DNA of 64,000 nt from a virus (taxonomy: Duplodnaviria > Caudoviricetes). The position numbers and the translations under genes were made by a program. The stretch is from the IMG/VR virus record IMGVR_UViG_3300028886_000001, one strand, 5' to 3'. Below the pieces are notes generated by a model. That model had not been told where the DNA came from, did not search any database, and saw only the letters and a list, made by a program, of their open reading frames with translations. Positions 3,495-50,313 of this stretch are shown piece by piece (the stretch's first letter is position 1; each line of letters begins with the position of its first letter).

Positions 3495-3629
3495 TATTAT
3501 TCCTCCTTTATATATAAATTAATAAGATGTTGTCTAACCTTATTTCATTTTTGTGCGTTACTATACTAGATAAGGGTAAATACGTTGAACTATATAATAA
3601 CTATAAAACTTTGAAAGGAATGATATACA

Positions 3630-6401
3630 ATGTTGATTTCAATAAATACAGTTAAGCATAGAGCTGATGGTTTAAAAAATGGAACTAAATATACAATGTC
3701 AGAAAATTGTAATATATTAAGAAATAGTATGAAAACAACTACTAATCCTGTATTGGTAGAAAGATATATTGGTAGTTGGGATTATAGAGATAATTATGCT
3801 GAAAGAACAGCATTTAGAGATATGCTTAATACAGTAAAGGAATTCTGTTTAAGAAATGATATAGGAAATAGTATAAAGGAACATGCTATATCTTATATAG
3901 GTAAAAATGCATTATATCAATTTAGTAATGCAAAACATGCTAAGGAATTAGTAAATGAAGTATTTGGTAATAGTGATGTAGAAGAAGCTAAACCACTATT
4001 AGAAGAAGTAAATACTGTAATAGCTTGTGATAGAGTAATTAATAATCAAAAAGCTCTAAATAAGAAAGTAAGCTTAGATAATACAGTAATGAGATATGAT
4101 ATGGGAAAGATATCTTTAAAAGAATGTATTGAAAACATGTGTGAACAAGTAGACAGTTTCAATATGAAATTTAAAGTTAAATATAATGTAGCATTAGAGA
4201 ATATATTATATACTCTAAGTAATCATAATATAAAATGTAGTAGAAGTACTGTACTAGAAACAGTAACAGATTACTTCCTTATGAAGAATAATAAGAAAGA
4301 GAATATAGAAGCTATGGCTGATATAATAGAAAGAACTAGTTTCTATAATGATGACGATAAAGTAGGAGTACAATATGTAATAGAGAATGTCAATAAGAAG
4401 AATGAATTAGATGATATTCTATATAGACAAGATTACTATACTGAAGAAGTAAAACAACTTGTTAAAGATAAATTAAACAATGTAAAGAAGACTGCTAAGA
4501 AGATAGCTTCTAGTAATATCTTTGATGAATTAAAATTATTATATGATAAGAAACCAGAGAAGATAAAAGCTATAGTAAATAAATTATATGTAAGAAGTCC
4601 AGAGCAAATATTAGATGAGCTTCCTAACTTCTTATCATGGTTCAGAACAGCATTAGTTCTAACAACTTTTTCTGTAAGTCCATACCTAGGTATTATATCT
4701 TTAGGTGTAGATAAATTTATACAAATGTCTCTTCAAAGAGATCATACTAAGAAAGCTATAGATAAATATAATAAAGAATTATCTAAAGCTGAAAATAAAT
4801 TAGATAGATTAGACCCTGATAGTAAAGCATATTCAAATTGTGAAGCATATATTGCTACACTTAAAAAGAATATAAGAAAACTAGAAGAATACTATGATAC
4901 ATTAAAGAGTGAAAAGGAGATTGATGAAAGTATGAATTATAATTCAACAGACCCAGAAATAGCAGGAATATTAAATGATATAAGTGTAGATGACATGAAT
5001 CTTACTGATGCACAAAAAATATATCTAGACGTAGAGAATAGTTCTGTCGATGTAGAAGAATATCTAGAATCAGAACACAAGAAGGTATTAAGAAATGTAC
5101 AAGCAGCTATGAGAAAGCTTAGAGAAACTTATATAGTAAACTCTCAATTTAATAAATTGGCTAGACAAGGATACTTCACTATGATAGATGAAGAAGAATA
5201 TAATAGATTTGCTTTAGCTAATAATACTGTAATAGAAGATTATATAGGAGGAGACAATAAGATATTCTTCTGTATAGGACATTGCTTACCATTAAAAGCA
5301 ACAGATGAAAAATACAGAGATAAAGAAACCATACGTTATTTATTAGATAGACTTACTGATATATTAGAAGAAGTATGTGATGCTTCTATTAATGTATTAT
5401 ATGAAGGTGATGATGAAGATATATATCATATATATCTATCATATATGAAACCAATAGAATGGCAAGATGATTCAGTGTACGAATCTTTTATGCATATAGA
5501 TACTAGAAAGAATGCTGCATTAGTATTAGCATTAGAAGGCACTATTAATCAATTTACTACTTATAATCCAAATGAGATAATGAGTATGATAGAGAATAAT
5601 ATAGATAAGTATGATAATGACGTAATAAATGCTATATCTATTATATCTATGAACGAATCATCAATTATAAACCCAGAAGAATTAATTGATATCTTAAAGA
5701 AAGAAAAGAATAGAGTTTATAAATTAAATGAATCAGCTGGTACTAAGTATAGTAGAACGTCTACTATTTCAGAATGTATTAGTATGCTCAAAGATACTAA
5801 GCCTAAAGAAGAAATACGAGAGACATCATTTGAATCTGTAGCACACTTAATGAATATTAATGAAGCAATACAATCTATATATGAATATAATCAATCTGTA
5901 AATGAAACATCATTAAAGACCAATGTTAAGATAGTAGCACAGAAGGTTAAGAATAAAGCTAATATATTAAACGATAAACAGAAACAAGCATCAGCTCAAT
6001 TAGATAATATGGTAGATAAATTCCAAGATTCAATACAGAAAGACTTATCAAATAAGAATAGAGAGGCAGTTATTAAAGGTAGATTATTACCTTCAGCTTC
6101 AGCAATAATTAAATTAGCATTAGCTAGTGGTATAGCTGGATTAGCAAATCCAGTATTAGGAGTTATTACAGCTCTTGGTGGTCTAGGAGCTGCTGCTGCT
6201 GGTACTAAGAAAGAAAAACAATATATACTAGATGAGATAGATATACAATTAAAATTAGTAGAAAAGAAACAACAACTTGCAGAATCTAATAATGATATGA
6301 AGTCTTTAGAAGAACTTATGAAAATAGAAAGAAAACTAAAAAGAGAAAGACAAAGAATAATGTATAGATTAAAGAACTATTATCCTGCTAGTGTAAATTA
6401 A
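3630..6401 (+). CDS. large virion/head protein with two hydrophobic hairpins
   Basis: 923 aa; head-gene context; many x-x-E|S/A sites (VYES, LNES, INEA, VNET). Confidence 0.6.
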   Translation: MLISINTVKHRADGLKNGTKYTMSENCNILRNSMKTTTNPVLVERYIGSWDYRDNYAERTAFRDMLNTVKEFCLRNDIGNSIKEHAISYIGKNALYQFSNAKHAKELVNEVFGNSDVEEAKPLLEEVNTVIACDRVINNQKALNKKVSLDNTVMRYDMGKISLKECIENMCEQVDSFNMKFKVKYNVALENILYTLSNHNIKCSRSTVLETVTDYFLMKNNKKENIEAMADIIERTSFYNDDDKVGVQYVIENVNKKNELDDILYRQDYYTEEVKQLVKDKLNNVKKTAKKIASSNIFDELKLLYDKKPEKIKAIVNKLYVRSPEQILDELPNFLSWFRTALVLTTFSVSPYLGIISLGVDKFIQMSLQRDHTKKAIDKYNKELSKAENKLDRLDPDSKAYSNCEAYIATLKKNIRKLEEYYDTLKSEKEIDESMNYNSTDPEIAGILNDISVDDMNLTDAQKIYLDVENSSVDVEEYLESEHKKVLRNVQAAMRKLRETYIVNSQFNKLARQGYFTMIDEEEYNRFALANNTVIEDYIGGDNKIFFCIGHCLPLKATDEKYRDKETIRYLLDRLTDILEEVCDASINVLYEGDDEDIYHIYLSYMKPIEWQDDSVYESFMHIDTRKNAALVLALEGTINQFTTYNPNEIMSMIENNIDKYDNDVINAISIISMNESSIINPEELIDILKKEKNRVYKLNESAGTKYSRTSTISECISMLKDTKPKEEIRETSFESVAHLMNINEAIQSIYEYNQSVNETSLKTNVKIVAQKVKNKANILNDKQKQASAQLDNMVDKFQDSIQKDLSNKNREAVIKGRLLPSASAIIKLALASGIAGLANPVLGVITALGGLGAAAAGTKKEKQYILDEIDIQLKLVEKKQQLAESNNDMKSLEELMKIERKLKRERQRIMYRLKNYYPASVN

Positions 6402-6416
6402 ATGGAGGTGAAATAG

Positions 6417-7475: not shown

Positions 7476-7499
7476 GTTGAAGCCCAGAAAAGGCAATAT

Positions 7500-7511
7500 A
7501 ACAATATAATA
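7500..7511 (+). promoter_or_regulatory. late/nvRNAP-type promoter AACA-N6-TA (representative + strand copy)
   Basis: exact + strand copies start at 7500, 9324, 10954, 19211, 24116, 31336, 32793, 36113, 46376 and 50276, each just upstream of a gene. Confidence 0.85.
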
Positions 7512-7571
7512 AGCGTTATAAGCTGAATACAAAATAAAAAATAAAATTTTTATGAAAGGTGGTAGTTGTTT

Positions 7572-9302: not shown

Positions 9303-9338
9303 AATATAAATTTATACTGAAACAACACAAATATAATA

Positions 9339-9366: not shown

Positions 9367-9398
9367 ATTTTTTTTATTTAAGGAGGTTAAATATAGTT

Positions 9399-10553: not shown

Positions 10554-10554
10554 T

Positions 10555-10933: not shown

Positions 10934-10990
10934 TTATTTTTTATGTGTGTATTAACACACATGTAGTTCAATATATAAGGAGTGATTAAA

Positions 10991-11761
10991 ATGGCTTTAG
11001 GAAGTCAAAATACAAACAATAACGGAAATGGAAAAGGAAATTATCAACAAGAATCTTATTCAGCATATGCATTTACTAACCCATCATCTCAAGTAGATGC
11101 TACTAAATTATCTATCGGATATTGGAATAAACTACTTAAATTATCTATAGCTCCACTTAAGAAAGCTGGAGATAATGGATATAATGAATGGGATTATGCT
11201 AATGCTATGACATTATATATACCACATACTAAAGCAAGAATACTTTATAATGAAATAATGTTATTCTTAAATGATCCTAAGAAGTATAATAATGTAGGTA
11301 TTCCTTTAAAGAAAGGATGCATACTAGTATCTAATGGTACTGAATTTGGAACTACTAATCCTGTATTAGTAATGAAAGATATATCAGAAGATGGTACAGT
11401 AAATGCAACATTCTGTTATGAATTTAATAATTTCAATTACGGAATGAGAAATGTAACTGAGTCTTTAGACTTTGATAAGAATACTTATGAATTATTAGAA
11501 CTTCAAGAATTAGCTGATGTATTAAATCAATATTATTTAGCTATGACTGGAGCATATGCATATTCTGTTAGAGATGAATTGAAGTATGACTTCTCACCAA
11601 TAAATACTAAGATCGGTTTAATAGCAGAAAAACTTGGTGTTGAATTCAAAGGTGGTAATAATAAATCTAGTAATAAGAATTCTAGATCAGTATTTGACAA
11701 TAAACAACCAAAATCTAATAATACTTCATTAGAAGACTTAGAGAATGAATTAAACTATTAA
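10991..11761 (+). CDS. hypothetical protein, possibly ssDNA-binding
   Basis: beta-rich core, G/N/S linker and acidic tail (SLEDLENELNY); AAGGAG RBS favours ATG 10991. Confidence 0.45.
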   Translation: MALGSQNTNNNGNGKGNYQQESYSAYAFTNPSSQVDATKLSIGYWNKLLKLSIAPLKKAGDNGYNEWDYANAMTLYIPHTKARILYNEIMLFLNDPKKYNNVGIPLKKGCILVSNGTEFGTTNPVLVMKDISEDGTVNATFCYEFNNFNYGMRNVTESLDFDKNTYELLELQELADVLNQYYLAMTGAYAYSVRDELKYDFSPINTKIGLIAEKLGVEFKGGNNKSSNKNSRSVFDNKQPKSNNTSLEDLENELNY

Positions 11762-12488: not shown

Positions 12489-14204
12489 ATGGTAATAACA
12501 AACGTTGTTAAGAAAGAACAACTAAGAAAAGTACAATTAGAAACTTTAAAATTCTTAAGTGATTCTGTAAAGAATTCCTATGGTCCAATTGGTTCTAATA
12601 CAGAAATATTTAGACCTGATTCTTTAAATAAGTATACTAAAGATGGTCACTCTATCTTAGAGAGTATACAATTCAAAGGAGAAATAGAAAGATCTGTACA
12701 AAGAGATATAACTGACATTACTAGACATGTAGTAAAGACAGTAGGAGATGGTACTACATCAGCTTCTATGCTTGCTTATGATATATTCAGTTCTCTTATA
12801 GATATAGAAAAAGGTGGTAAGTATACTTCATATGAAATTATAGCTTTATTAAAGAAGACTGTTGCTGATATAAATAAAGAGATATTAAGTAATGCTAAAG
12901 AATTTACTTCTCAATCTGCTTATGATATTACTTATATATCTACTAATGGTAATGAAGAAATAGCTAATACTATGAAGATGATATATGATAAATTTGGTAA
13001 AGATGTATTTATAGATGTAGCTATATCTAATACACCAGATAGTATGATTAAAGTATATGATGGTATGACTCTACCAAAAGGATACTGTGATAGTGTATAT
13101 ATAAATGATGCTAAGAATGGTACTTGTACTTTAAGAAATCCAAAGATATATACTTTTGAAGATCCTATAGATACTCCAGAAATGTTTAGTTTCTTTAATA
13201 CTATAATAGATAAGAATATATTTGCAGCTTATTCTCAAGATAGTAAAACTGCTCCTGTTCCTACAGTTATTATAGCTCCACATATATCTAGAGATAGTAT
13301 ATCTTATATGGATCAGCTTAATAACTTCTTATGTAGATTTACTGGAGATTTATTAGCTTCTAAACCACCAATACTATTAATAACAAATGCTGATCATTTA
13401 GATCAACTAAGCGATATTGCTAAAATGTGTGGATGTAAAGCTATAAAGAAATATATTAACCCAGACATGCAAAAGAAAGATATAGAAGCTGGACTAGCAC
13501 CAGACTTAAATACTATATTAGATTTCTGTGGTACTGCTGATGAAGTAGTTTCTGATCTATCTGCTACTAAATTTGTAAATCCTAAGATGATGAATAATGA
13601 AGATGGTACTAGAAGTACATTCTTTAAAGCTCATATAGAATTCTTAGAATCAGAATTAGCTAAAGCACAAGAAAATAGCGAAGATGCACATGTTATTGGT
13701 ACTTTAAAGAGAAGAATAAACTCTTTAAAAGCTAATATGGTTGAATATCTTATTGGTGGTATCTCTATGTCTGATAGAGATAGTCTTAGAGATTTAGTAG
13801 AAGATGCTGTATTAAACTGTAGATCTGCTGCTAGAAATGGTGTTGGATTTGGAGCTAGTACTCAAGGATATCTAGCTACTTTAAAATTATATAATGATAA
13901 ACTTAAAGAATCAGATGAAGTAGATATGCTTACTACTATACTATCTGCATATAAGAATTTATTATCATCATTATATTCTACTAAGTTCAATACTACTAAA
14001 TGTGATGAAATAATAAATCTTATAGGAGAACATGGTATTCCTTATAATATTAAGAGTGAAAAAGAAGATGATAAGATACTTTGTTCTATAACTACAGATT
14101 CTACTATACTAGAAGCTGTATGTCAAATAGTATCAATCATGTTTACTTGTAACCAATTCTTATGCTCAAATATTAATGAAAATAAATATTTAATATCACA
14201 ATAA
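12489..14204 (+). CDS. phage-encoded GroEL-like chaperonin
   Basis: SYGP-G, TKDG, VGDGTTS and VEDAV motifs; 571 aa. Confidence 0.92.
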   Translation: MVITNVVKKEQLRKVQLETLKFLSDSVKNSYGPIGSNTEIFRPDSLNKYTKDGHSILESIQFKGEIERSVQRDITDITRHVVKTVGDGTTSASMLAYDIFSSLIDIEKGGKYTSYEIIALLKKTVADINKEILSNAKEFTSQSAYDITYISTNGNEEIANTMKMIYDKFGKDVFIDVAISNTPDSMIKVYDGMTLPKGYCDSVYINDAKNGTCTLRNPKIYTFEDPIDTPEMFSFFNTIIDKNIFAAYSQDSKTAPVPTVIIAPHISRDSISYMDQLNNFLCRFTGDLLASKPPILLITNADHLDQLSDIAKMCGCKAIKKYINPDMQKKDIEAGLAPDLNTILDFCGTADEVVSDLSATKFVNPKMMNNEDGTRSTFFKAHIEFLESELAKAQENSEDAHVIGTLKRRINSLKANMVEYLIGGISMSDRDSLRDLVEDAVLNCRSAARNGVGFGASTQGYLATLKLYNDKLKESDEVDMLTTILSAYKNLLSSLYSTKFNTTKCDEIINLIGEHGIPYNIKSEKEDDKILCSITTDSTILEAVCQIVSIMFTCNQFLCSNINENKYLISQ

Positions 14205-14271
14205 CAAATAATTGATGTCGATAGCTGGCATGCTATCGACATATTTATTTAAGAGAGGTGTATTTGAATAT

Positions 14272-15039
14272 ATGGAGATGACATTCGATAATTATATAGT
14301 AAACCCTATGGGTATAAAGAATTCAGTATTTTCACAAAGAGAAATGTATAGAGAACTATACAGACAAAAGTTAGATAAGATATTAGTAAGAGAAGGAGGA
14401 AAGGTTAATTATAAATTATATAAAGATAAAGATAACTATTACGTTTGGTTTAAAATACCATCAGAAGTTATATCAAATTTTTATTATGATGTAGTAATAA
14501 AGTTTATACCTAAGTCTAATGCAGTTAAACTTACTAAATCATTAAAAGAGTATAATGTAAAGTTTTATTCTAATGACCCAGCATTTGTATTTACGTTTGC
14601 ATATGCTATGGAAAAGAATAAATTATTCATAGATGAACTAGCTCCAGTAATGAGTCAGGAAGCATTAAAAGAAAGAGCAAAAGAAAGGAATCCTAAATCA
14701 GAAGTAGGATATGTAAAATCATTATTCTTTGCTTATCTATTAATGAGACAATATAATCTATTTGACAAGTTATTATATGAAGAAAACGGGATATCTTTTA
14801 ATATCAAAGAATTATTATCTAAGATAACTCCTGCTGATAAGAAGATTAGAGATAGGCAAGAAGCACAGATAGAGCTTAATAAGAAAAATAGAATAGCAAA
14901 AGCTAAAGAAGCAAATAAAGAAAGAGACAAAGAAATGAAAACAACAAATAGTACAACTACATCTAAAATGACTAAGAATTTCAATATCAGTAAGAAGTCT
15001 AAAACTGTAGGAAGAATAAAAAGAACAAAGAAATTTTAA
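14272..15039 (+). CDS. hypothetical protein with basic tail
   Basis: AGAGGTG RBS before ATG 14272; the upstream extension overlaps a terminator hairpin. Confidence 0.75.
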   Translation: MEMTFDNYIVNPMGIKNSVFSQREMYRELYRQKLDKILVREGGKVNYKLYKDKDNYYVWFKIPSEVISNFYYDVVIKFIPKSNAVKLTKSLKEYNVKFYSNDPAFVFTFAYAMEKNKLFIDELAPVMSQEALKERAKERNPKSEVGYVKSLFFAYLLMRQYNLFDKLLYEENGISFNIKELLSKITPADKKIRDRQEAQIELNKKNRIAKAKEANKERDKEMKTTNSTTTSKMTKNFNISKKSKTVGRIKRTKKF

Positions 15040-15051
15040 ATTATATATTAT
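15039..15051 (+). promoter_or_regulatory. early/vRNAP-type promoter (A/G)ATT(A/G)TATATTAT (representative + strand copy)
   Basis: + strand copies at 145, 1873, 15039, 28588, 29940, 32191 and 33781, all upstream of non-structural genes. Confidence 0.8.
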
Positions 15052-15056: not shown

Positions 15057-16595
15057 ATGGAGGGGATAGAATTGCAAAAGATATGGAAATATGTACCTAC
15101 ACAAGAATTCATAAAAATAGATGATTGGAAACCAGAAGAAGAAGACAAAGTATTTAAACACGTTAAAAGGGCAATCATATTGCCAATACAAGAAGTATTA
15201 GGTTTAGAACCAGGAACAGCTGATTTTCTTGATAGTTTTGTGTTGCCTAAGAAAGGACATAATTCAATAAAGATAAGAAATCACATGACACATTATTTAA
15301 ACTATTTTGAAAAATTCTATGATCAAGATCATGAACTTTTAACAGTATATTCACAGATAAAATATATCATGGATATAAAGGTTAAATATTCAGAAGATCA
15401 GTTATTCTTTGATATTAAAAGATATCTATTCAATCCGTCATTAATGCTTAAATTAAGATTCTTAAATGACGATAACTATTGCTTAAATCTTACTTATGTA
15501 AATAAGAAAGAAGCAGCATTACAATATACTAATAGACATGCTAAGATGCTAATGAAACTTAGTTTTATGATGTTAATGGCATTACCATTGGTAAACCATT
15601 ATTCATATATTCATAAGAAAGACACAAACTTCTTAGTATTGAAATTATTTGATGAAGCATCATTGATGTTCTCATCTGTAGATATATATAGTAAACTATA
15701 CGAAACAGCATATAGTAATATATCTAATAATGAAAAGGTAAATCCTATATGGCAAAATCAAGATATTAGAGGTATAAATGTTACAACTCATACTCTAGCA
15801 TCTGTACGTAATATCATTGTCAATATAATACCTAAATATGTATACAATATGAATATAATCAATATGAACTTCGCTTCTATAAAGAAGAATATTGGTTATC
15901 AGATAACTGATATCAGTTATGAATATGAATTTAGACCTTTATCATCTACTAATAGAGATGAAGATAATAATAGTGAATATGATAAATTTGAATCATATCT
16001 TACTAAGTTTAATGAATCTGCATATCTATTCAATAAAGTAAATGGTAAATATGTATATGATTGTATAATGAAGGAATTTGGTCCTATAAGTAAGAAGGAA
16101 TATGATCTTTACTATTCTGAACTAGCTAAAGCTACTAATAGTGAAATAGTTCATCCATTCCAAGAAGAATTAGTATTCTATACATTCCTTGATAAATTTA
16201 GTGATCCTGCATGTATAAGATCACTACATAGAACGGATTATGTTAATCTCGTAATATGTGCTAAACGATATTTATTAAAGAAGAACTTCACTATCTTACC
16301 ATATATAGTGGGAGGTAGAATATTAAGGTTGGTTACTAAGAAAGGTTTAACTGATCAAATATTTACTAGAATGTCTAAATCGGAAGAATATAAACTCATT
16401 ATAGAAAAGTATGGTGATAATAACCGTGCTTTAATAGATTATATGCATTCTTTATGGGCTACAATCATGGCATCGGATTTCTCTGTCATAGATTCAGAAC
16501 GTAAAGAGATAAATGGAAAGTTAATAAATAAGGGTATAAACAATGTTCAACAAATTCTTGAAGAAGAACTTATGAGGTTTACTCTTATGATATAA
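15057..16595 (+). CDS. probable promoter-specificity (sigma-like) subunit of non-virion RNAP (AR9 gp226 / phiKZ gp68 class)
   Basis: 512 aa helical protein two genes from the chaperonin, as recalled for AR9 g228/g226; early-type promoter; called by synteny only. Confidence 0.5.
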   Translation: MEGIELQKIWKYVPTQEFIKIDDWKPEEEDKVFKHVKRAIILPIQEVLGLEPGTADFLDSFVLPKKGHNSIKIRNHMTHYLNYFEKFYDQDHELLTVYSQIKYIMDIKVKYSEDQLFFDIKRYLFNPSLMLKLRFLNDDNYCLNLTYVNKKEAALQYTNRHAKMLMKLSFMMLMALPLVNHYSYIHKKDTNFLVLKLFDEASLMFSSVDIYSKLYETAYSNISNNEKVNPIWQNQDIRGINVTTHTLASVRNIIVNIIPKYVYNMNIINMNFASIKKNIGYQITDISYEYEFRPLSSTNRDEDNNSEYDKFESYLTKFNESAYLFNKVNGKYVYDCIMKEFGPISKKEYDLYYSELAKATNSEIVHPFQEELVFYTFLDKFSDPACIRSLHRTDYVNLVICAKRYLLKKNFTILPYIVGGRILRLVTKKGLTDQIFTRMSKSEEYKLIIEKYGDNNRALIDYMHSLWATIMASDFSVIDSERKEINGKLINKGINNVQQILEEELMRFTLMI

Positions 16596-17997: not shown

Positions 17998-19212
17998 ATG
18001 GCTGGTAAATTTATAAATACTAATCATCAAGAAACTATAGAGAATCTTATAAAAAGTCAAGTAGATCAATATAGAGCTCCATATTATAAACACCAAGACA
18101 AGCAATGCATATATGCTACTTATTATAATCAAAACTTAGATATGTCTACTCAAGATGAAGGTAGTGCATTACAAAATCAATTCATTGGTAGTGAGAGCCC
18201 ATTAAGATTTAATAAGATATATAACTTTTGTATGCTTGGAATGGAGAAAATATCTGCAGCATTAGAGAATGGTGAATATGGATTAGAATCATCTCCTATA
18301 GAAGGGGATTTAATAGTTATGCCTGATACTATTATACCTGTAGCTAATGATTATTTTATTATAGACCATGTACAACAGCATAAAGAACAAAAGAAGTTAA
18401 TATTTAAAGTAACACAAGTAGATGCTGATTCTCTAGATGATGGTTCTAGAGAATTCAAAGTTAGTTATAAACTAGATAGAGTTGGAGAAGAAGAAATAGA
18501 CAGACAAGTAGTAGAAGAGTATACTATGATTATAGATAATAATGAAACTCAATATAAATCTATAATAAAGAAAGTAGACTATGACTTAGTAAATGATTTA
18601 GGTGGTTTATGTAGAAATCTATGTAAATATTATAAGTCTCTATTCTATTCCCCTAGAGTAGATACATTTATATTTAGACATAATGGATATAATATGTATG
18701 ATCCTTATATGATAGAATTCTTAATAAGAAATGAAGTATTATCTTATGATGATGATTATCTATTCATAAATCATAAGTGTTCTAAACTTGCTACATTTCC
18801 TCTAGACTATAATAAGACTATATTTGCATTCTTAGAAGATAAAAATAGAAAGGGTAATCCTTTGATATATAGTCAAGGATTTCCTATATTAGAACCTTTA
18901 TCCGTATTTGATTGTAGAATGGAGCCTTATTTTAAGATAGAATATTGTAATGAAGTATTCGATAGAGGTAGAGGAATAATAAATAATTTCAATGAAGAAT
19001 TATTTGAAAGATGTAATACTAATACTTATTATTTAGAAGAAAAAGATAGGTATAAAAATGTGATAATACGTTACTTTAACAATGGCAAAATTGGAAAAGA
19101 TGATATATTAGATATAGAGTCCATGCAGTATAGTAATGATATTGAATTTTTTTATAATATCCCGATAATAATATACATATTAGGATTAAAAGTCGCAGAA
19201 TTAATGAAATAA
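17998..19212 (+). CDS. probable virion structural protein
   Basis: AAGGAGG RBS before ATG 17998; beta-rich N-terminal half; function not recognisable. Confidence 0.5.
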   Translation: MAGKFINTNHQETIENLIKSQVDQYRAPYYKHQDKQCIYATYYNQNLDMSTQDEGSALQNQFIGSESPLRFNKIYNFCMLGMEKISAALENGEYGLESSPIEGDLIVMPDTIIPVANDYFIIDHVQQHKEQKKLIFKVTQVDADSLDDGSREFKVSYKLDRVGEEEIDRQVVEEYTMIIDNNETQYKSIIKKVDYDLVNDLGGLCRNLCKYYKSLFYSPRVDTFIFRHNGYNMYDPYMIEFLIRNEVLSYDDDYLFINHKCSKLATFPLDYNKTIFAFLEDKNRKGNPLIYSQGFPILEPLSVFDCRMEPYFKIEYCNEVFDRGRGIINNFNEELFERCNTNTYYLEEKDRYKNVIIRYFNNGKIGKDDILDIESMQYSNDIEFFYNIPIIIYILGLKVAELMK

Positions 19213-19253
19213 CATATAGATAAAATTCTTATTAAAAAGGAGGAATTTAAGCC

Positions 19254-19942: not shown

Positions 19943-21625
19943 TTAGAATTCTGGTACTCCTAATTGCTTCTCTGTTTCTGGTAATGCTAAAGTTAATGCA
20001 TATGCAGATTCTATAGCTTCTTTAGCAGATGTTCTTATATTCATGCCTCCTAAAGATACATAATGTGCTTTAGAGTTAGAATATTCTTTAAGTTCAGCAT
20101 TAGATTCATCAGTAAATGCTATCTTAGCTGTACATTGGTCTCCGTCATAGTCTCCTCCGATACCTTCTAGATATAGATTACATATTCTTAATGTATCTAC
20201 AAAAGAACTACTTGTATTAGTTCTTATATCTTCTTGCCTTATCTTTGGATAAAACTTATAATATTCATTACCTATAACCATAGGTTCTGTTTCTACAGTA
20301 GATGATACTTCTACTAATGTAGGGAATTGGTTAAAGTATGTATCCATAGGATAACGTGTGATTAATACATATTTGCCTTTTACAGCTTCTTTAGCAGCCC
20401 TAAATATTAAATCACACCAAGTTAAATCTCTATCTACTATACTGCTTTTACCTGTTAATTCTTTATCTAATTTTTCTGCATCACTTACATCTAATTCATT
20501 TAATCTTTCATTAATATGTCTTCCAACAAATCTCATATGTATTTTATACCCTTCTACAGATTCAACCTCTACTGGAATAAATCTATTAGAATAGCCATGG
20601 CAAAATCTATCTATTTCTTTTTTCAATCTAGCATCTGAGAATTGTTCTAATGGATCTTTTATTTGAACATTCTTTATACTTCCATCTTTATCTATCATTG
20701 GATACGATGCAGTACCTGAAAATTCATTTTCAAAGAAACGTCTTAAATAGAATATAATAAATGGGTATACATTACTACATAAAGATGCCAATGGTACAGC
20801 AGAATAGTCTAAGTTAACCATCATATCATCTACATGCTCTACTCTTAAATCTGGAGCAGATAGTACTAATCTAGATGCATAATCTGCTGTCTTAGACATA
20901 TTAGCTCTTCTTAATATACCATATTTCTTAGACATACCAGTACCATTCGAATCAGCATTTCCTGGCATTGAACCATCTACAAACCATTGATATATAGCAA
21001 GTAATGTTTCTTGTATTCTTCCATTAGTAGCATCTGATAAAGATATACCAAAGTCTTGTGTTTCTTTTTTACTCTTTACAGCCATTATAAGATTATCATA
21101 TAATTTATTTACATCTCCTAGAGAAACATAATGTCCATTATTGTTTACATCTCTATAATATGCTGGGATTACTATCATCTGTTTAATAAATAGCTTATCT
21201 CTAAATTTATTTAGATAAGCAACTTTATCATTATTCTTTATAGATGTAGTAGTCTTAAACTTAATCTTGTCTATATTTTGCTTTAAGAAGTTAATACCTG
21301 TTTTACCGTTCTCATCATCTACTATATTTCCTTTAGCATCTAATGACACCATTCTTTTACCATGAACTATATCTCTTACTCTTCCATCTATCGAATTCCA
21401 TATCTTATATGCAAATGGATGTAAGAACCAATCTGATAAATCTATATAAGCAAATATATTAGCTCTCTCTTCTTTAGTAATACCAAATATTTCATTAGAT
21501 AATAAACCATCATCAGTTGGTATTCCAGTAGAAGAGAAGTATATAGAATTTGTAATCTCCTTTAAATCATTAACCTTTATCAACTTATCTGGTTCTAAAG
21601 GTTCTATTTCTAAATATCTATCCAT
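19943..21625 (-). CDS. multisubunit RNA polymerase beta' subunit, N-terminal/catalytic part (probably virion RNAP)
   Basis: GLLSNEIFG, VIPAYYRD, TRYP and catalytic GGDYDGD motifs; late-type promoter at 21642-21653. Confidence 0.9.
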   Translation of the reverse strand: MDRYLEIEPLEPDKLIKVNDLKEITNSIYFSSTGIPTDDGLLSNEIFGITKEERANIFAYIDLSDWFLHPFAYKIWNSIDGRVRDIVHGKRMVSLDAKGNIVDDENGKTGINFLKQNIDKIKFKTTTSIKNNDKVAYLNKFRDKLFIKQMIVIPAYYRDVNNNGHYVSLGDVNKLYDNLIMAVKSKKETQDFGISLSDATNGRIQETLLAIYQWFVDGSMPGNADSNGTGMSKKYGILRRANMSKTADYASRLVLSAPDLRVEHVDDMMVNLDYSAVPLASLCSNVYPFIIFYLRRFFENEFSGTASYPMIDKDGSIKNVQIKDPLEQFSDARLKKEIDRFCHGYSNRFIPVEVESVEGYKIHMRFVGRHINERLNELDVSDAEKLDKELTGKSSIVDRDLTWCDLIFRAAKEAVKGKYVLITRYPMDTYFNQFPTLVEVSSTVETEPMVIGNEYYKFYPKIRQEDIRTNTSSSFVDTLRICNLYLEGIGGDYDGDQCTAKIAFTDESNAELKEYSNSKAHYVSLGGMNIRTSAKEAIESAYALTLALPETEKQLGVPEF

Positions 21626-21641: not shown

Positions 21642-21653
21642 TAATAAAATGTT
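21642..21653 (-). promoter_or_regulatory. late/nvRNAP-type promoter AACA-N6-TA (representative - strand copy)
   Basis: exact - strand copies at 3520-3531, 21642-21653, 24054-24065, 41618-41629, 42898-42909 and 45362-45373. Confidence 0.85.
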
Positions 21654-24027: not shown

Positions 24028-24152
24028 TCTATTTAACCCCCTTTGTATTCGACTATTATTTTGTTTAATGTATTTTTTTATACTTTAATTCATTTACATA
24101 AGTTAAAATAACAAAAACATCTAATTAAATTGATATAAGGAGGTAATATATT

Positions 24153-28514: not shown

Positions 28515-28651
28515 ATTTTTTTACGTTAAATATAACTTACGAGTGTTAAAAGAATAATAGAACTTCATATGTTCTAATATATTTTTTAATTATATATTAT
28601 ACATGTGATTACAATGTAATCATAAAATTTATTTTAAGGAGGTTGATCTAA

Positions 28652-29936: not shown

Positions 29937-29988
29937 TATAATTATATATTATATAGAAGTAATATAAATATTAATGGAGGGAATTAAA

Positions 29989-31298: not shown

Positions 31299-31382
31299 AG
31301 AAAGCTTGAACAGCTTTCTTTTTTATTTTTTGGTGAACATTTTAGTATTATACTAAAATAATATATTATGGAGGGGTTACAT

Positions 31383-32153: not shown

Positions 32154-32236
32154 TACATAGTATAGACCAGTAAAGGTCTATACTATTTTTAATTGTATAT
32201 TATTATATAGTAATAATATATACAGAGGAGGATAAA

Positions 32237-32794
32237 ATGAGATATAGGTATTCACAAATAAAGAAATTAAAAACGATAGAGATATTAGACACAGATACAC
32301 TAGTAAAGAGTATATCAATAGTAAAGGAGAATGATCCAGACGTTACAGATAATATATTATATTTAGTTCCTTATACTAAGATAGTAATAAAATCTAAATT
32401 TTCATCTAATAGTAATATAATACATTATATGATATTAGAAGCAGATAAGAAAGACGAAGTAACACTTTATCATTATACCTGGGATGGAATAAACCCATTA
32501 AAAGAAATACTAATAGTAAACTTCATAAGTGTAGATGATAAATTAAAGTATCGTATAATAATGAGTAAATTATCAGAAGATGCTGTAGGAGCTTTTATAA
32601 ATGTAGTGGTTAGTATTCTTATGTATTATTCTTATATAAGTAATAATAATATAAAGGATAGCAATATAAAAGAATACAATATGAATAATAAAGAGTATAT
32701 AGAAGTAAAAGGACATCTTAGACATTATAAGAATGGCACAGTTAGATGGATAAACCCATATAAGATTAAACGTAAAAATATAAGTAAGTCTTAA
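32237..32794 (+). CDS. hypothetical early protein
   Basis: early motif at 32191; C-terminal VKGHLRHYKNG..WINPY basic motif. Confidence 0.75.
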   Translation: MRYRYSQIKKLKTIEILDTDTLVKSISIVKENDPDVTDNILYLVPYTKIVIKSKFSSNSNIIHYMILEADKKDEVTLYHYTWDGINPLKEILIVNFISVDDKLKYRIIMSKLSEDAVGAFINVVVSILMYYSYISNNNIKDSNIKEYNMNNKEYIEVKGHLRHYKNGTVRWINPYKIKRKNISKS

Positions 32795-32828
32795 CAAATG
32801 TATATAGATATAAATAGGAGGTTTTATA

Positions 32829-33770: not shown

Positions 33771-33858
33771 ATACTATTTTAATTATATATTATATATTTG
33801 ATTAGTATTAATAATAATCAAAAAGTAATTACAAAAAAATATTAAGGAGGAAGAGATT

Positions 33859-36107: not shown

Positions 36108-36170
36108 TGGAAAACATAGTAGTAAGGACTAGTTTCCTTACTACTATTTTTATTTTTTTGAGGTGATAAG

Positions 36171-37361: not shown

Positions 37362-37396
37362 ATTTATTGTGAAATATATTATTTATTACCATTCTG

Positions 37397-41562: not shown

Positions 41563-41631
41563 TGTATTATTCCTCCTTTTAATTTATAATATTATTAGGT
41601 TCTAAATTAATAGAACCTAATATAATGTTTC

Positions 41632-42840: not shown

Positions 42841-42954
42841 AGATTTATCATTCCTTTCATTATTTAATTAATTTTGCAGAATATAAGTACTGCAATTTAC
42901 TTGTATGTTTATTAATAAGATTATGGATAGAATTAAAATCATCCATAATTATTG

Positions 42955-45334: not shown

Positions 45335-45456
45335 ATTATTATTCCTCCTTATTATAAATTTTATTTTTATGTTAAACTATAAAAAATAAAGATTACTCAA
45401 TTAAGTGTAAATATTAATGTTTAGGCAAAAAATAAAACCTATGGATATTATAGATA

Positions 45457-45675
45457 TTATATTTCTATTACAATACGATCAACGTCTGGAAATTTTTTGT
45501 CCACCATATCTATAATTTTTCCTATATATTCTAAATCTAATTCTTGTTGCCTTCTTTCATCTTCTTCAGCCCATCTTCTCATACGTTCAATCTCTCTTTC
45601 TGTTTGTCTTTGCATTGCTTTATGGACTTCTATTTCTCCTCTACAAAAATAATTTGTTGGTCTTTCTATTCTCAT
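45457..45675 (-). CDS. small early protein, paralogue 3
   Basis: MRIERPTNYFCRG..AMQRQTEREI..MRRWA; GGAGGAG RBS. Confidence 0.85.
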   Translation of the reverse strand: MRIERPTNYFCRGEIEVHKAMQRQTEREIERMRRWAEEDERRQQELDLEYIGKIIDMVDKKFPDVDRIVIEI

Positions 45676-45823
45676 AATTACTATCTCCTCCGAATTTGTT
45701 TATTTATTATATCACTATTGTGTATACCTATTATGTGGGGATCGGATAATAATTAATTGAATATCCATAGGTCACAATTATAATATATAATTATAATTGT
45801 GATTACCTATAGATAAACTTACC

Positions 45824-46039
45824 TTATAAATTTATCTCTATTTCGGCATCAGGATATTTTGTCTTTATCATATCTATAACACTTTCTATATATTCTAACT
45901 TTAATTTTTGTCTACTTCTTTCATCTTCTTCAGCCCATCTTCTCATACGTTTAATTTCTCTTTCAGTTTGTCTTTGCATTGCATCGTGAAGTAATTGTCC
46001 TCCTCTGCAAAAATTATTTAATGGTCTTTCTATTCTCAT
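45824..46039 (-). CDS. small early protein, paralogue 2
   Basis: same N-terminal motif; AAGGAG RBS favours the MRIER start. Confidence 0.85.
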   Translation of the reverse strand: MRIERPLNNFCRGGQLLHDAMQRQTEREIKRMRRWAEEDERSRQKLKLEYIESVIDMIKTKYPDAEIEINL

Positions 46040-46060
46040 GATAACCACTCTCCTTATATT

Positions 46061-46309
46061 TTATTTATGCATAATAATATTAATAGTGTTAATATTAACA
46101 GTATTACAATTTATATTTCCAAATATATCCGAAAGAACCCCTCTAGCAATAGCCTGACCGTCTATATTATTAGCAATATCATTTTGTTCTGCATCTTCCC
46201 TAGCCCATCTTCTCATACGTTTAATTTCTCTTTCTGTTTGTCTTTGCATTGCTTTATGGACTTCAATTTCTCCTCTACAAAAATAATTTGTTGATCTTTC
46301 TATTCTCAT
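46061..46309 (-). CDS. small early protein, paralogue 1
   Basis: same N-terminal motif with a different C-terminus; early motif at 46342-46354. Confidence 0.85.
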   Translation of the reverse strand: MRIERSTNYFCRGEIEVHKAMQRQTEREIKRMRRWAREDAEQNDIANNIDGQAIARGVLSDIFGNINCNTVNINTINIIMHK

Positions 46310-46341
46310 AATAACCACTCTCCTTATATTTTATTTCATTA

Positions 46342-46354
46342 ATAATATACAATT
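46342..46354 (-). promoter_or_regulatory. early-type promoter (representative - strand copy)
   Basis: - strand copies at 19873-19885, 45780-45792 and 46342-46354. Confidence 0.75.
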
Positions 46355-46417
46355 AAAATATTATTTACATAGAGCAACATAACTATAATACATTTAATGA
46401 AAGGAGATGACGACAGT

Positions 46418-47581
46418 ATGGCTAATGAATCCAAATTTGATAAAAAAGAAATATATAGAGTGAAACAAGCACAAGATGATAAAATAGATCAACATATAGA
46501 TCCAGTAGAAGAAAGAATTCGTTGGGCTTCATATGGATTTGATAAAAAGTATCTTGTTAATAATGGTGAAGGTAAGAAAAAAGAATTTGATGATGCTATA
46601 GATAAAGCTAGAAAGCAAGCTATGTACTATACAAGATCTGAATATGAATGGTTTACTAAATTTCATAGATTTGGAGGAGGATTTACTCCTTCTAATATAT
46701 TTGGTCCTACAAGAGAATATGTGTTCTTTGTTAAACCAGATTTACATTTATATGATGTAGCAGATTCTTTCCATTTAAATGGAGATAAAGTACAAGAAGG
46801 ACAGCCTAATCCAGAATTAGCAGATATAGCATTCTTTAAAGATATGTATGATGATTACCCAGATGTATTAAATCAATTACAATCATCTCATAATGGACCT
46901 TATAATACAGGACCATTTATGAATTTATTATCTTCAGCAGCTCAATCAGAAGTAGATATGGGTTCTATATCTGTAACTGATGTAGATGGACCATTAACTG
47001 TATATGGTGATAGTATTATATATTCTGGTAACTCTCTTACTGAAGAATATAATAAAGACTTCTCATTAGATTTTAAAGATACTAAATACTTAGAAGTATA
47101 TAGATTATTTAAGACATGGGACCTATATAGAAATTATAAACAAATGGGAGCTGTTACTCCTACTAAGCAAGACTATATAATACATAAAAGACTTCATGAC
47201 CAATGCTGTGCATATAAGATAGTAGTTGGAGAAGATGGAGAAAGTATAATATATTGGGCTAAACTATGGGGAGTATACAATACAAATGTACCAAGAGATA
47301 CATTTTCTTCTATGCCTAAAGATGGTACTCTTAATTTTACAGTAAATTTCAATGCTACATTTACAAGAGACTTAGATCCATTCAGTTTATTTGAATTTAA
47401 TAAACTTACAGAGAGTATACCTAGAAATGAATCTCATATAGCAATTCATAATAATTTTAAAGACGATGCAGATTTAGATTCTCATGTAAATTATGATTGG
47501 GTTGGTTGTCCTTATATAATAAGTAGTAGAGATGAGTTAGAAGGTAGAAATATATATAAATTGAAATGGAGGAAAGCATAA
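46418..47581 (+). CDS. tail-tube-like baseplate protein
   Basis: FSLDFKDTKYLEVYRLFKTW and IIYWAKLWGVY..VP patterns resemble the tube fold; start codon uncertain (46397 or 46418). Confidence 0.55.
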   Translation: MANESKFDKKEIYRVKQAQDDKIDQHIDPVEERIRWASYGFDKKYLVNNGEGKKKEFDDAIDKARKQAMYYTRSEYEWFTKFHRFGGGFTPSNIFGPTREYVFFVKPDLHLYDVADSFHLNGDKVQEGQPNPELADIAFFKDMYDDYPDVLNQLQSSHNGPYNTGPFMNLLSSAAQSEVDMGSISVTDVDGPLTVYGDSIIYSGNSLTEEYNKDFSLDFKDTKYLEVYRLFKTWDLYRNYKQMGAVTPTKQDYIIHKRLHDQCCAYKIVVGEDGESIIYWAKLWGVYNTNVPRDTFSSMPKDGTLNFTVNFNATFTRDLDPFSLFEFNKLTESIPRNESHIAIHNNFKDDADLDSHVNYDWVGCPYIISSRDELEGRNIYKLKWRKA

Positions 47582-50277
47582 TGGCTAATGAAATAAAAAC
47601 CGATATATATGATATATCTAGTATGGTTGATACTATACAGAAGAAGTATATGGAATGCTTAGATCAAGATACAATGTATGTATCATTATATGGATACTTA
47701 AATGAAATGTTTTCTAATATAATTCAAAATTCTATTATGACTTCAATAGAATGGGGTAATGAGTCATTCCCATTAAGAGCTAAGTTTGAAAGAAGTATAA
47801 TAACTACAGCTATAAATTATGGAATAGAAGTATTAAAGGCTACTCCATCTCATATAGATGTAATGATAGGATTTATAGAGCATGAATTGGTTAAATTAAT
47901 GACATCTACTGATTTAGATAAAGCTAATACTATAATAATAGATAAAGATACTAAATTTAATATAGAAAGTTATGAATTCCATTTAGATTATGACTTAATG
48001 ATTACTAGAAGAATGGTTAAAACTGGTAATAAGATAAAGAATGATGATGGTGTTATAGTAGATGAGTATACTAATATATATAATGCTTCATATATAATGG
48101 ATAAGAAGAATAATATATCTGATGTAGATACACCATATTTACCATTACCAATTGTTCTTACAGTAAATGAAGATAACTTCTTATTTATAAGTCTTACTTT
48201 AAGACAAGTTAAACATTGTGTGTCTGAAGGAAAGATAATATCTACTAATGAATTAGATAATATTACTTATGACTTTACTTTTGATGAGCAATTAGCAGAT
48301 TTTACAGTTACAGTAAAAGAACCAGATGGCACTACTATAGACTTAGAGCCTATATATGAAGGTATGCCAAGTGATACTTATGAGCACTACTGTTTCTATA
48401 CTTATACTACAGCTAATTCTATAAGATTAAAATTCGATAGAAGTTCATATCAACCTACATTGAATTCTAATATAATAGTAAATTACAAGACTACGTTAGG
48501 CTCTAAAGGTAATTTCTCATATAATGAAGATATTACTATGAATATTAATCCTTCTAATGCTTATGCTGGTTCTACTATAGGTATAGTATTAAGACCTAGT
48601 GGTGATGCTCAAATGGGATTAGATAAAAAGAGTGTAGACGAATTAAAACAAATAATTCCAAAAGAAATGTTATCTAGAGGATGTATATCTACTCTTACAG
48701 ATTTACAGAATTACTTTGATACTTATGATGATACTAGATTAAAATTCTTTAAGAAGAGAGATAATCAATTTGAAAGATTATATTATGCATATCTATTAGC
48801 TAAAGATAGTTATGGTAATATAATACCTACAAATACTTTAAGATTAAAGATTACACTAGACGACTTTGATTCTTGCAAAGATAATAGATATACTCTTAAT
48901 GCAGGACATCTATTTGAATTAAATACTACTACAAATGAAATGACTATAAGAGATGATCTTATAGATGAAGAACATGGTATAACACCAGAAGTTATAGAAG
49001 AAAGTAAGTTCATATATAGTTGTCCATATCAAATAGTAGTAAATAGACAACCATCATTATCTTACTATCTTACTTATATAGACGATACTTATCCAGTAGT
49101 ATTCAAGTATAATAATTCTGATAGTCCAATGCAATTTATAATATCATCTGTAAGATGTACTAAACCTTATAAAGAAGGAGTATATACTATATCTTGTACA
49201 GCTACTAGAACAGTAAATAGCGAATTCCCTGTAGTAGAAATGGACTCTGAAGGAAAGATAACTAAGTCTTATCTAAAACCTGTATTAATATTAAATAGAG
49301 GGGAGTTTAAATATTATACTTTTGGTAAAGTAGTAGGTATAAATGAAATAGGATATGAATTAGAATTTACATTGAAGTCTGATAATACTATAGATATGGC
49401 TAATAATATCCATATATCAGATATATATTTTGGAGGAGATACTGCTCTTACTAATGTATTTATGCCAGAGTCTATAGGATGTACTATAGCACTATATACT
49501 TTAATGGATATAGATTACGATAATCCTACAACAGGAAGTAGCTTAGATGATATAGTAAAATCTAATCCTAATGAGGATTTTGATACTTCTACATGGACAT
49601 TAAGTAATATATATGATTTAGGAACAAAGCTTAATCTATTTTATAATTATTCTAATGTATTGAATTCTACTATAGTATTACAAGAGAATACTAAAACTGG
49701 TGGATATGATTATATAATAAAGAGTGTACCATGTGTAAGATACTCTTATATAAATGATCCTATAAAGTGTAAAGAGTTTATAGATTATATTAAATTCAGA
49801 AAGACTTATATAGATACATGCTTAGAATATCTAGAGAATAATTTATCTATAGACTTTAAGTTCTTCAATACTTATGGTCCAGCTAAGTTATTTAAGATAG
49901 ATGTTGTAGATGCTGATGGTAATGATGCTGGTACTACTGAATTAGATAGAGTTAATATTAAATTAGTATTTAGAACTAAGCTTACTACTAATGCTGTAGA
50001 TGAAACTATAAGTAAGATGAAGCAATCTATAAAAGGATATGTAGAAGATTTAAATAAGCTTACTAGTATCCATATGACTAATCTTACTACATATCTTACT
50101 AATGAATATAAAGAAGATATAGAATTTATAGAATTCGTTAAAGTAAACAACTATAATGCTCTTACACAGTATCTTAAGAGAAATGAAGTAGAAAATGTAG
50201 AAGATGTTCCAGAATTCCTTAATATAGACTTATCTACAGATACATTAGAACCACAGATAGATATTAAGGTAATTTAA
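47581..50277 (+). CDS. baseplate wedge protein (T4 gp6-like)
   Basis: ESFPLRAK..SI, YKTTLGSKGN and G-DKKSVDELK..DLQNYF motifs; GGAGG RBS before ATG 47581. Confidence 0.75.
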   Translation: MANEIKTDIYDISSMVDTIQKKYMECLDQDTMYVSLYGYLNEMFSNIIQNSIMTSIEWGNESFPLRAKFERSIITTAINYGIEVLKATPSHIDVMIGFIEHELVKLMTSTDLDKANTIIIDKDTKFNIESYEFHLDYDLMITRRMVKTGNKIKNDDGVIVDEYTNIYNASYIMDKKNNISDVDTPYLPLPIVLTVNEDNFLFISLTLRQVKHCVSEGKIISTNELDNITYDFTFDEQLADFTVTVKEPDGTTIDLEPIYEGMPSDTYEHYCFYTYTTANSIRLKFDRSSYQPTLNSNIIVNYKTTLGSKGNFSYNEDITMNINPSNAYAGSTIGIVLRPSGDAQMGLDKKSVDELKQIIPKEMLSRGCISTLTDLQNYFDTYDDTRLKFFKKRDNQFERLYYAYLLAKDSYGNIIPTNTLRLKITLDDFDSCKDNRYTLNAGHLFELNTTTNEMTIRDDLIDEEHGITPEVIEESKFIYSCPYQIVVNRQPSLSYYLTYIDDTYPVVFKYNNSDSPMQFIISSVRCTKPYKEGVYTISCTATRTVNSEFPVVEMDSEGKITKSYLKPVLILNRGEFKYYTFGKVVGINEIGYELEFTLKSDNTIDMANNIHISDIYFGGDTALTNVFMPESIGCTIALYTLMDIDYDNPTTGSSLDDIVKSNPNEDFDTSTWTLSNIYDLGTKLNLFYNYSNVLNSTIVLQENTKTGGYDYIIKSVPCVRYSYINDPIKCKEFIDYIKFRKTYIDTCLEYLENNLSIDFKFFNTYGPAKLFKIDVVDADGNDAGTTELDRVNIKLVFRTKLTTNAVDETISKMKQSIKGYVEDLNKLTSIHMTNLTTYLTNEYKEDIEFIEFVKVNNYNALTQYLKRNEVENVEDVPEFLNIDLSTDTLEPQIDIKVI

Positions 50278-50313
50278 CATCTGATTAAATAAGATTAAGG
50301 AGGTTTATTGAAT

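Follow-up and report, generated by a model that had tools for sequence, protein, structure and literature searches.

The DNA analysed here is a 64,000-nucleotide window of the virus record IMGVR_UViG_3300028886_000001 (minus strand, positions 85203-149202 of 213,202 bp), and our subject is the AACA-N6-TA motif found ahead of many of its genes together with the RNA polymerase (RNAP) that would read it. Taking the evidence as a whole, we consider it probable that the phage has a late promoter system of the type known from Bacillus phage AR9 and that this system most likely runs on thymine DNA. In AR9 and PBS1, late promoters of the form 5'-AACA-N6-T(A/G)-3' are used by a non-virion RNAP (nvRNAP) holoenzyme containing gp226 (PDB 7S01, 7UM0, 7UM1; PMC9209446, PMC7598289). 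In this system transcripts begin at the T(A/G), and the promoter is recognised in the template strand, on ssDNA as well. In the literature, uracil genomes go together with these promoters and with close orthologues of gp226, and thymine jumbo phages with phiKZ-type TATG promoters; the uracil requirement has been explained as a means of not transcribing host DNA (PMC7598289, PMC9209446). The widespread uncultivated clade described here breaks this pairing, in that the AR9 promoter and polymerase are kept and thymidylate synthesis is encoded. We found no description in the literature searched of gp226-family subunits or AACA-N6-T(A/G) promoters in phages that encode a thymidylate synthase.

The virus record has 109-bp exact direct terminal repeats, a completeness score of 100%, and a GC content of 28%. 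Below, coordinates preceded by G000 refer to the complete 213,202-bp genome and all others to the window. In protein searches the phage fell beside the group of AR9/PBS1, Staphylococcus phage S6, Listeria phage LPJP1, and Yersinia phage phiR1-37, at 23-40% identity. When the annotated AR9 genome was compared locally with the open reading frames (ORFs) of G000 (tblastn), 61 of the 209 ORFs had AR9 homologues, and the other 148 had no AR9 match. A phage collection searched at the DNA level with a 5.7-kb stretch of the window gave no match, so that relatives are seen at the protein level only. The phage is a member of a large uncultivated clade that is distantly related to Bacillus phage AR9/PBS1. 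The clade comprises 254 homologues of the sigma-like subunit described below, and several of its genomes are complete (200-275 kb).

Late and early promoters

A pattern search of the window found 44 copies of AACA-N6-TA versus 82.8 ± 8.7 in shuffles, and the motif is thus depleted overall. Its distribution is far from even: the non-coding DNA (3,787 bases, 5.9% of the window) holds 17 of the 44 copies, and 16 of these 17 are aimed at a start codon at most 150 nt downstream. Across the genome there are 172 copies, 64 of them intergenic (non-coding fraction 7.2%), compared with 26.2 ± 4.8 and a maximum of 41 in shuffled intergenic segments. Fifty-eight of the 64 intergenic copies are directed at a gene and the other 6 point elsewhere (binomial p = 9e-12), with a median distance of 28 nt from the TA to the start codon and an extended logo of AACAT-N3-A-(A/G)-TA. 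The spacing is specific, since N5 and N7 controls gave 11 and 5 oriented sites, and all controls, including AACA base changes, gave 5-20. The same pipeline applied to AR9 as a positive control returned 274 total, 77 intergenic, and 64 oriented copies (172, 64, and 58 here), with controls at 5-28. The dinucleotide at the presumed start of oriented sites is TA in 58 cases, TG in 14, TT in 4, and TC in 2, the AACA-N6-TG form being oriented in 14 of its 16 intergenic occurrences genome-wide; in AR9, the +1 base is A or G (PMC7598289).

Coding sequences contain about half as many AACA-N6-T[AG] sites as their codon shuffles, on the sense strand (114 versus 213 ± 14) and the antisense strand (49 versus 110 ± 10) alike, as expected if selection acts against stray promoters. 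The sites also follow gene function: 16 of 24 homologues of AR9 virion or virion-RNAP genes have a late promoter directly upstream, against 4 of 20 homologues of replication or non-virion-RNAP genes (Fisher p = 0.003), and 22 of the 24 have one inside their own transcription unit. The AACA-N6-TA consensus is kept in three complete relatives. We are highly confident that the AACA-N6-T[AG] sites are real late promoters of the nvRNAP.

An earlier sequence-only reading of the window had reported 16 exact AACA-N6-TA copies upstream of genes, and our pattern search returned the same count over the same span (3520-50287). Its broader proposal of an AR9-type promoter set also holds, on the strength of the spacing-specific, oriented motif and of an AR9 non-virion RNAP whose subunits, gp226 among them, all have homologues here. 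The AACT variants that it listed are present, at 121-132 (-) and 134-145 (+) as well as at the two positions given in Table 1, but they do not amount to a class here: with 15 oriented of 25 intergenic copies in G000, versus 10-20 for control patterns, AACT-N6-TA does not rise above controls, and we do not regard it as an established promoter class in this genome. In the three complete relatives, the AACT-N6-TA enrichment equals that of AACA-N6-TA. Among the intergenic AACA-N6-TA copies of the window, only that at 37387-37398 (-) faces no gene; the ORFs on either side, 36171-37340 and 37397-38644, converge on it with their 3' ends.

A second promoter class, AATT[A/G]TATATTAT-N4-5-TG, occurs 33 times in the genome, with 32 copies intergenic and 30 oriented, and matches the consensus of the annotated early promoters of AR9, AAATATATATTAT-N5-TG. 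These early-type promoters precede the non-virion RNAP subunit genes, gyrB, nrdG, and small early ORFs. As the early and late classes are both AR9-like, both AR9 transcription programmes appear to be conserved.

RNA polymerases and the -10 pocket

All five subunits of the AR9 non-virion RNAP have homologues in the phage. Four of them form the split beta/beta' core, namely the homologues of g105 (G000 198429-200186, tblastn E 6e-40), g089 (G000 203868-206060, E 1e-84), g270 (G000 45385-47094, E 3e-30), and g154 (G000 157364-159475, E 5e-38), and the fifth, the homologue of g226, is encoded within the window at 15057-16595. Virion-RNAP homologues were found for AR9 g145, g189, g264, and g078. 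The product of 15057-16595 is a member of the gp226 family by three lines of comparison: BLASTP against AR9 gp226 gave E 4e-14, profile-profile alignment (hhalign) gave 99.8% probability over 445 columns, and a Foldseek search with its AlphaFold model (pLDDT 85) gave as the sole significant PDB matches AR9 gp226 (7S01_A, 3e-14; 7UM0_A) followed by phiKZ gp68 (2.6e-6). The gene order GroEL-g227-g226-primase is the same as in AR9.

Likeness to phiKZ is more limited. The fifth subunit is homologous to phiKZ gp68 (PDB 8QUE, 7OGP), both phages have two RNAPs, and phiKZ DNA contains thymine. Unlike in phiKZ, however, the promoter is AR9-type and not TATG, the sigma-like subunit resembles gp226 far more than gp68, and AR9 is also the one matched in gene content and synteny. 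The Fusobacterium phages JD-Fnp1/4/6/7 have a virion-RNAP subunit and an endonuclease domain in common with the window phage, and no gp226-like match was found in them with either the window sigma-like protein or AR9 gp226 as the query; the paper on the JD-Fnp phages mentions neither uracil nor RNAP.

In AR9, V206 of gp226 sterically excludes the thymine methyl group at -10 and is absolutely conserved in phages with deoxyuridine-containing DNA (dU-DNA) (Fraser et al. 2022, PMC9209446). The V206G change abolishes the preference for U, so that AR9 nvRNAP then accepts -10T; Y210 stacks on -9G, R363 of the betaN subunit stacks on the -10 base, and the -11 position also excludes thymine, via DNA-backbone packing (PMC9209446). 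In three independent alignments, AR9 V206-I207-W208 corresponds to P230-I231-W232 of the window protein. AR9 Y210 is replaced by Asn, which is followed by a new invariant QDIRG motif, and betaN R363 is replaced by Met, with betaN K375 kept. Alignments show D-x-V-I-W in all five reference dU phages (AR9, BpSp, LPJP1, S6, and phiR1-37), and the V206-equivalent residue varies widely across 43 scored relatives (G in 10, V in 9, P in 6, I in 5, K in 5, R in 3, and others). Like the engineered V206G enzyme of AR9 (PMC9209446), the window protein has lost the valine, and Gly occurs naturally in 10 of the 43 relatives. That enzyme differs in one residue from a uracil-specific parent; here, divergence extends over the entire 2.1bis helix region and the wall formed by betaN, the residue is Pro, and tolerance of thymine is a prediction.

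Because the -10 pocket is remodelled (Pro, Met, Asn, and QDIRG), the template-strand consensus is therefore probably read as 3'-TTGT-5' and not as 3'-UUGU-5'. Since AR9 also excludes thymine at -11, the DNA path must therefore differ here too. This bears on the suggestion of the sequence-only reading that the promoters are read in a uracil-dependent manner, which is disfavoured by Pro at the V206 position, the hypervariability of that position in the clade, and Met at betaN R363. Valine at this position was also considered as a tracker of the absence of thymidylate synthase within the clade and was rejected, as Val occurs together with ThyX (L032, L034, L048) and with ThyA (L012).

Thymidylate synthesis and the base in the phage DNA

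A gene for the thymidylate synthase ThyX lies at G000 75257-76435 (+), about 8.8 kb past the window end. Its product scores 104.7 bits against PF02511 and 106.3 against TIGR02170, above the equivalog cut-off of 87.9, and the motifs HESxxEH (HESILEH), RHR-x7-S-x-RY (RHRNAITQASQRY at residue 233), and ARxxLP (ARAYLP) are all present. The protein is 392 aa long and has a ~120-residue insertion that separates the RHR motif from the N-terminal HESxxEH segment; the same two-part match is seen in the 394-488 aa frames of relatives, so that the insertion is a clade feature. ThyX or ThyA was found in none of the five reference dU phages. In contrast, 22 of 26 large relatives have a thymidylate synthase (14 ThyX and 8 ThyA-family), as do 15 of the 17 with a completeness of 90% or more, and thymidylate kinase adjoins ThyX in close relatives.

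The dcd gene noted in the sequence-only reading is real (31368-32153; PF22769 136 bits; TIGR02274 106.8, above the cut-off of 92.8), but its product has the DCD fold, whereas the dCTP deaminases of dU phages come from another protein family. The dCTP deaminases of PBS1, phiR1-37, and DSS3_VP1 are of the CDA fold and dCMP-deaminase-like (Li et al. 2025, PMC12697855), as is the CDA-fold dCTP deaminase g221 of AR9, and in dU phages their partners are a dTMP phosphatase (Dtm; PF06941 or PF12917) or a dTTP pyrophosphatase (Dtt; PF01725) (PMC12697855). The complete genome gave no match for CDA-fold Dcd (PF00383), no tblastn match to AR9 g221, and no match for PF06941, PF12917, or PF01725. Conversely, no DCD-fold gene was found in the reference dU phages, and among the relatives DCD was found exclusively in ThyX-bearing genomes. 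In comparisons with the window protein, bifunctional enzymes that form dUMP, from M. tuberculosis (73 bits), B. halodurans (58 bits), and M. jannaschii (57 bits), outscore the monofunctional E. coli Dcd (29 bits), and judging from these scores the window protein is probably a bifunctional dUMP-forming enzyme that feeds ThyX. Its C-terminal extension of ~85 residues (178-261) has no family match, and its gene has a late-type and not an early-type promoter.

With DCD and ThyX both encoded, the simplest reading is a supply line from dCTP to dUMP to dTMP for a genome of 72% A+T. The phage DNA very probably contains thymine. The proposal that the genome is dU-substituted therefore fared poorly once the complete genome was considered, as ThyX is intact and the CDA-fold Dcd, Dtm, and Dtt families are absent. 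Of the genome features that the sequence-only reading had named as bearing on its proposal, a thymidylate synthase is present, which counts against dU-DNA, whereas a classical dUTPase, which would have counted the same way, was not found. The uracil-DNA glycosylase (UNG) inhibitor that it had expected was not found either, in that AR9 g104 (Ugi) gave no tblastn match; UNG inhibitors are small, mutually unrelated, and diverse, so that the absence of Ugi cannot be shown and this is weak evidence.

We propose the following model. As in AR9, the phage carries genes for two split multisubunit RNAPs, of which the virion RNAP would be injected and would transcribe early genes (non-virion RNAP subunits, the sigma-like subunit, and nrdG) from AATT[A/G]TATATTAT-N4-5-TG. 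The non-virion holoenzyme with the gp226 homologue would then read AACA-N6-T[A/G] ahead of late genes (capsid, tail, virion RNAP, and others), and transcription would start at the predicted T[A/G], giving leaders of ~28 nt that bear the ribosome-binding site. Reading would be of the template strand, by homology with AR9, through a remodelled -10 pocket expected to tolerate thymine. DCD would convert dCTP to dUMP and ThyX would convert dUMP to dTMP.

Several points weigh against thymine DNA read in this way. (i) Neither a thymidylate kinase (PF02223) nor a stand-alone dUTPase was found in the genome (trimeric PF00692 and dimeric PF08761 both absent), and the pathway thus depends on host enzymes or on a bifunctional DCD. 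(ii) Sequencing cannot tell U from T. (iii) The residue equivalences (V206 = P230, R363 = Met) are drawn at 23% identity via the alignment anchors I-W and K..K..Y. (iv) Val at the V206 position co-occurs with ThyX or ThyA in some relatives, so that base content cannot be predicted from this residue by itself. (v) As AR9 also excludes thymine at -11, the pocket change by itself may not confer thymine tolerance.

Three other explanations were considered. It is very unlikely that AACA-N6-TA is some other signal near the 5' ends of genes, such as a -10-like element of a host sigma factor, a site of RNA processing, or a piece of the translation initiation region. The closeness of the motif to the ribosome-binding site (median 28 nt from the start codon) and the AT-richness of intergenic DNA would fit such a signal, but the N6 spacing and every AACA base are specific, the late promoter mapped by experiment in AR9 has this very consensus and the AR9 statistics are alike, a complete cognate polymerase is encoded, and the sites are biased to virion genes and avoided inside genes on both strands. 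A dU genome, whose nvRNAP needs template-strand deoxyuridines as in AR9 and whose ThyX is inactive, otherwise employed, or limited to one stage, is also improbable, even though both promoter consensuses are those of AR9, the phage falls in the wider AR9-related lineage in which all cultured, characterised members are reported to have dU-DNA (PMC7598289, PMC9209446), the DCD protein could plausibly deaminate dCTP, and neither a phage dUTPase nor a phage-encoded uracil-DNA glycosylase (PF03167) was found in the genome. The absences of the glycosylase, both dUTPase types, thymidylate kinase, and NrdD count as neutral or at most mildly informative. Set against the points in favour of dU-DNA are the intact ThyX, compared with a thymidylate synthase in none of the five dU phages; the lack of the CDA-fold Dcd, Dtm, and Dtt families; a DCD fold that is absent from dU phages and whose nearest enzymes form dUMP and also destroy dUTP; the failure to find a Ugi homologue; and Pro at the hypervariable V206 position with R363 and Y210 changed too.

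Jumbo phages without a nucleus often protect their DNA chemically, and another pyrimidine modification, derived from thymidine or introduced after replication (e.g., a hypermodified T), could be read by the altered pocket and would be compatible with ThyX. The remodelling relative to AR9 speaks for it, as do the many genes without an assigned function, 148 of the 209 ORFs having no AR9 match. We nevertheless judge this no more probable than dU-DNA: a ThyA-type dUMP hydroxymethylase was not found, no modification enzyme is evidenced although the search for such enzymes was not exhaustive, and the hypervariability of the -10 pocket position across the clade makes it less likely that one particular C5 substituent is read tightly.

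Set beside its cultured relatives, the window phage is like AR9 in its late consensus, spacing, and A/G start, in its early core TATATTAT-N5-TG, in its five nvRNAP subunits plus virion-RNAP subunits, in the gp226 fold with the I207-W208 anchor and betaN K375, and in synteny and shared ORFs. It is unlike AR9 in a protein identity of merely 23-40%, in the changed pocket residues and the added QDIRG, and in having ThyX and a DCD-fold deaminase, whereas AR9 has a CDA-fold Dcd (g221), Dtm (g151), and Ugi (g104); NrdG here contrasts with aerobic NrdEF/NrdI in AR9, and probable thymine with uracil. The phages with proven dU-DNA are PBS1, phiR1-37, DSS3_VP1, S6, and LPJP1 (PMC12697855, PMC8150378). 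With them, the window phage shares a jumbo myovirus-type form, the same broad RNAP-encoding lineage (DSS3_VP1 excepted), and a dCTP-deaminating enzyme; it differs from them in that the enzyme has the DCD and not the CDA fold, Dtm/Dtt are lacking, a thymidylate synthase is present, and V-I-W is not conserved. Promoter motifs or a 'dcd' annotation are insufficient for calling dU-DNA. The thymine reading raises the question of how a 6-base consensus can be specific without a uracil mark and of which residues set U/T selectivity, for which the clade supplies natural variants including Gly at the V206 position.

One relative stands apart. IMGVR_UViG_3300029305_004606 (G001; 200,990 bp, 100% complete; loci L016 and L116-L126) is one of just two relatives at least 90% complete that have neither ThyX nor ThyA. 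It encodes a deaminase of the CDA fold (85 bits), and its sigma-like subunit shows V-I-W. Its predicted gene profile is that of a dU-DNA phage, and G001 may be dU-DNA. Should that be true, a U-to-T or T-to-U switch would have taken place inside one clade and would be traceable by residue. We suggest, tentatively and with less confidence than in thymine DNA itself, that the clade represents a natural re-tooling of the base-flipping template-strand recognition of AR9 from deoxyuridine to thymidine under an identical consensus, with at least one sister that is maybe dU-DNA.

Host, feature positions, and neighbouring genes

The window also encodes NrdG, the activase of anaerobic ribonucleotide reductase, at 266-730 (TIGR02491 161.5, above the cut-off of 126.1). 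The nrdG gene named in the sequence-only reading is thus confirmed, though it lies beyond the 3520-50287 span that was claimed. The complete genome gave no match to NrdD (PF13597); the orphan NrdG would therefore need the reductase of the host. The nearest named homologues of NrdG are from Clostridium sensu stricto, Sarcina, and Paeniclostridium (47-55% identity), and one sigma-like homologue stems from a Paraclostridium metagenome-assembled genome. No homologue of the aerobic NrdEF/NrdI of AR9 and no class I ribonucleotide reductase homologue was found in the genome. From this gene content, a Clostridium-like anaerobe is the likely host; a host unlike aerobic Bacillus, as had been suggested earlier, is likewise likely given the clostridial NrdG kin, the GC content of 28%, and the lack of a class I enzyme.

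Table 1. Predicted promoters and the genes of the transcription, deaminase, and NrdG systems in the window
Feature	Position	Strand	Gene or remark
Early-type promoter	145..157	+	Upstream of nrdG
NrdG, anaerobic ribonucleotide reductase activase	266..730	+	Fer4_12 138 bits; motif GCKHNCKGC (radical-SAM CxxxCxxC)
Late promoter AACATCTTATTA	3520..3531	-	26 nt upstream of prohead protease gene 2670-3494 (AR9 g114 homologue; Peptidase_S77)
Candidate AACT-N6-TA variant promoter	3588..3599	+	31 nt upstream of 923-aa gene 3630-6401
Late promoter	7500..7511	+	Major head protein gene 7566-9302 (phrog_20655; AR9 g117 homologue)
Late promoter	9324..9335	+	Zincin/M48 protease gene 9399-10553
Late promoter	10954..10965	+	ORF 10982-11761
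Candidate late promoter, AACA-N6-TG type	14203..14214	+	g227 homologue 14212/14272-15039
Early (virion-RNAP type) promoter AATTATATATTAT	15039..15051	+	Sigma-like subunit gene; AR9 g226 too has an annotated early promoter
Sigma-like specificity subunit of non-virion RNAP (gp226 family)	15057..16595	+	
AACA-N6-TA copy	19211..19222	+	150 nt ahead of ORF 19372-19740; in terms of distance, the weakest of the 16
Virion RNAP beta'-N (AR9 g145 homologue)	19943..21625	-	phrog_2986 5e-74; tblastn against AR9-like phages 27-31% identity
Late promoter	21642..21653	-	17 nt upstream of virion-RNAP beta'-N gene 19943-21625
Late promoter	24054..24065	-	Baseplate wedge gp25-like gene 23659-24027 (AR9 g232)
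Late promoter	24116..24127	+	Endonuclease-GNAT multidomain gene 24153-26756; divergent from promoter 24054..24065
Early-type promoter AATTATATATTAT	28588..28600	+	
Early-type promoter	29940..29952	+	ORF 29974-30432
Late promoter	31336..31347	+	dcd gene 31368-32153
DCD-fold dCTP deaminase, 261 aa	31368..32153	+	PF22769; TIGR02274 (scores in text)
Early-type promoter	32191..32203	+	ORF 32237-32794
Late promoter	32793..32804	+	ORF 32829-33770
Early-type promoter	33781..33793	+	ORF 33859-34605
Late promoter	36113..36124	+	AR9 g218 homologue 36171-37340
Late promoter	41618..41629	-	ORF 40426-41562
Late promoter	42898..42909	-	ORF 41632-42840
Late promoter	45362..45373	-	Minor virion structural protein gene 43979-45334 (AR9 g214)
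Early-type promoter	45780..45792	-	ORF 45457-45675
Early-type promoter	46342..46354	-	ORF 46061-46318
Late promoter	46376..46387	+	Virion protein gene 46397/46418-47581 (AR9 g213)
Late promoter	50276..50287	+	ORF 50308-51234
Candidate AACT-N6-TA variant promoter	52613..52624	-	36 nt upstream of ORF 52392-52577

Pfam matches were lacking for most window proteins, NCBIfam gave no match for 15 structural or unknown ORFs of the window, and no tRNA genes were found within it. Several of the remaining genes could nevertheless be related to AR9. A giant ORF at 54539-64000 (-) runs past the window and reaches 3,807 aa in the whole genome, its N-terminus matching the AR9 tape measure protein g204. The 867-aa protein of 24153-26756 (+) consists of an AR9 g233-like Zn-finger endonuclease (residues 12-246) fused to GNAT acetyltransferase domains; the endonuclease part is ~40% identical to those of AR9, S6, and LPJP1, and the AR9 version is a stand-alone protein of 238 aa. 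DUF4116 repeat proteins are encoded at 28908-29936 and 30433-31080 (+), the first with 7 repeats (132 bits), and a DUF4116 domain is fused to one NrdG homologue elsewhere (P0160). The metallo-beta-lactamase-fold protein of 1921-2643 (+) is a homologue of AR9 g022, and its match to the anti-Pycsar nuclease Apyc1 is weak and sub-threshold (20 bits, cut-off 50).

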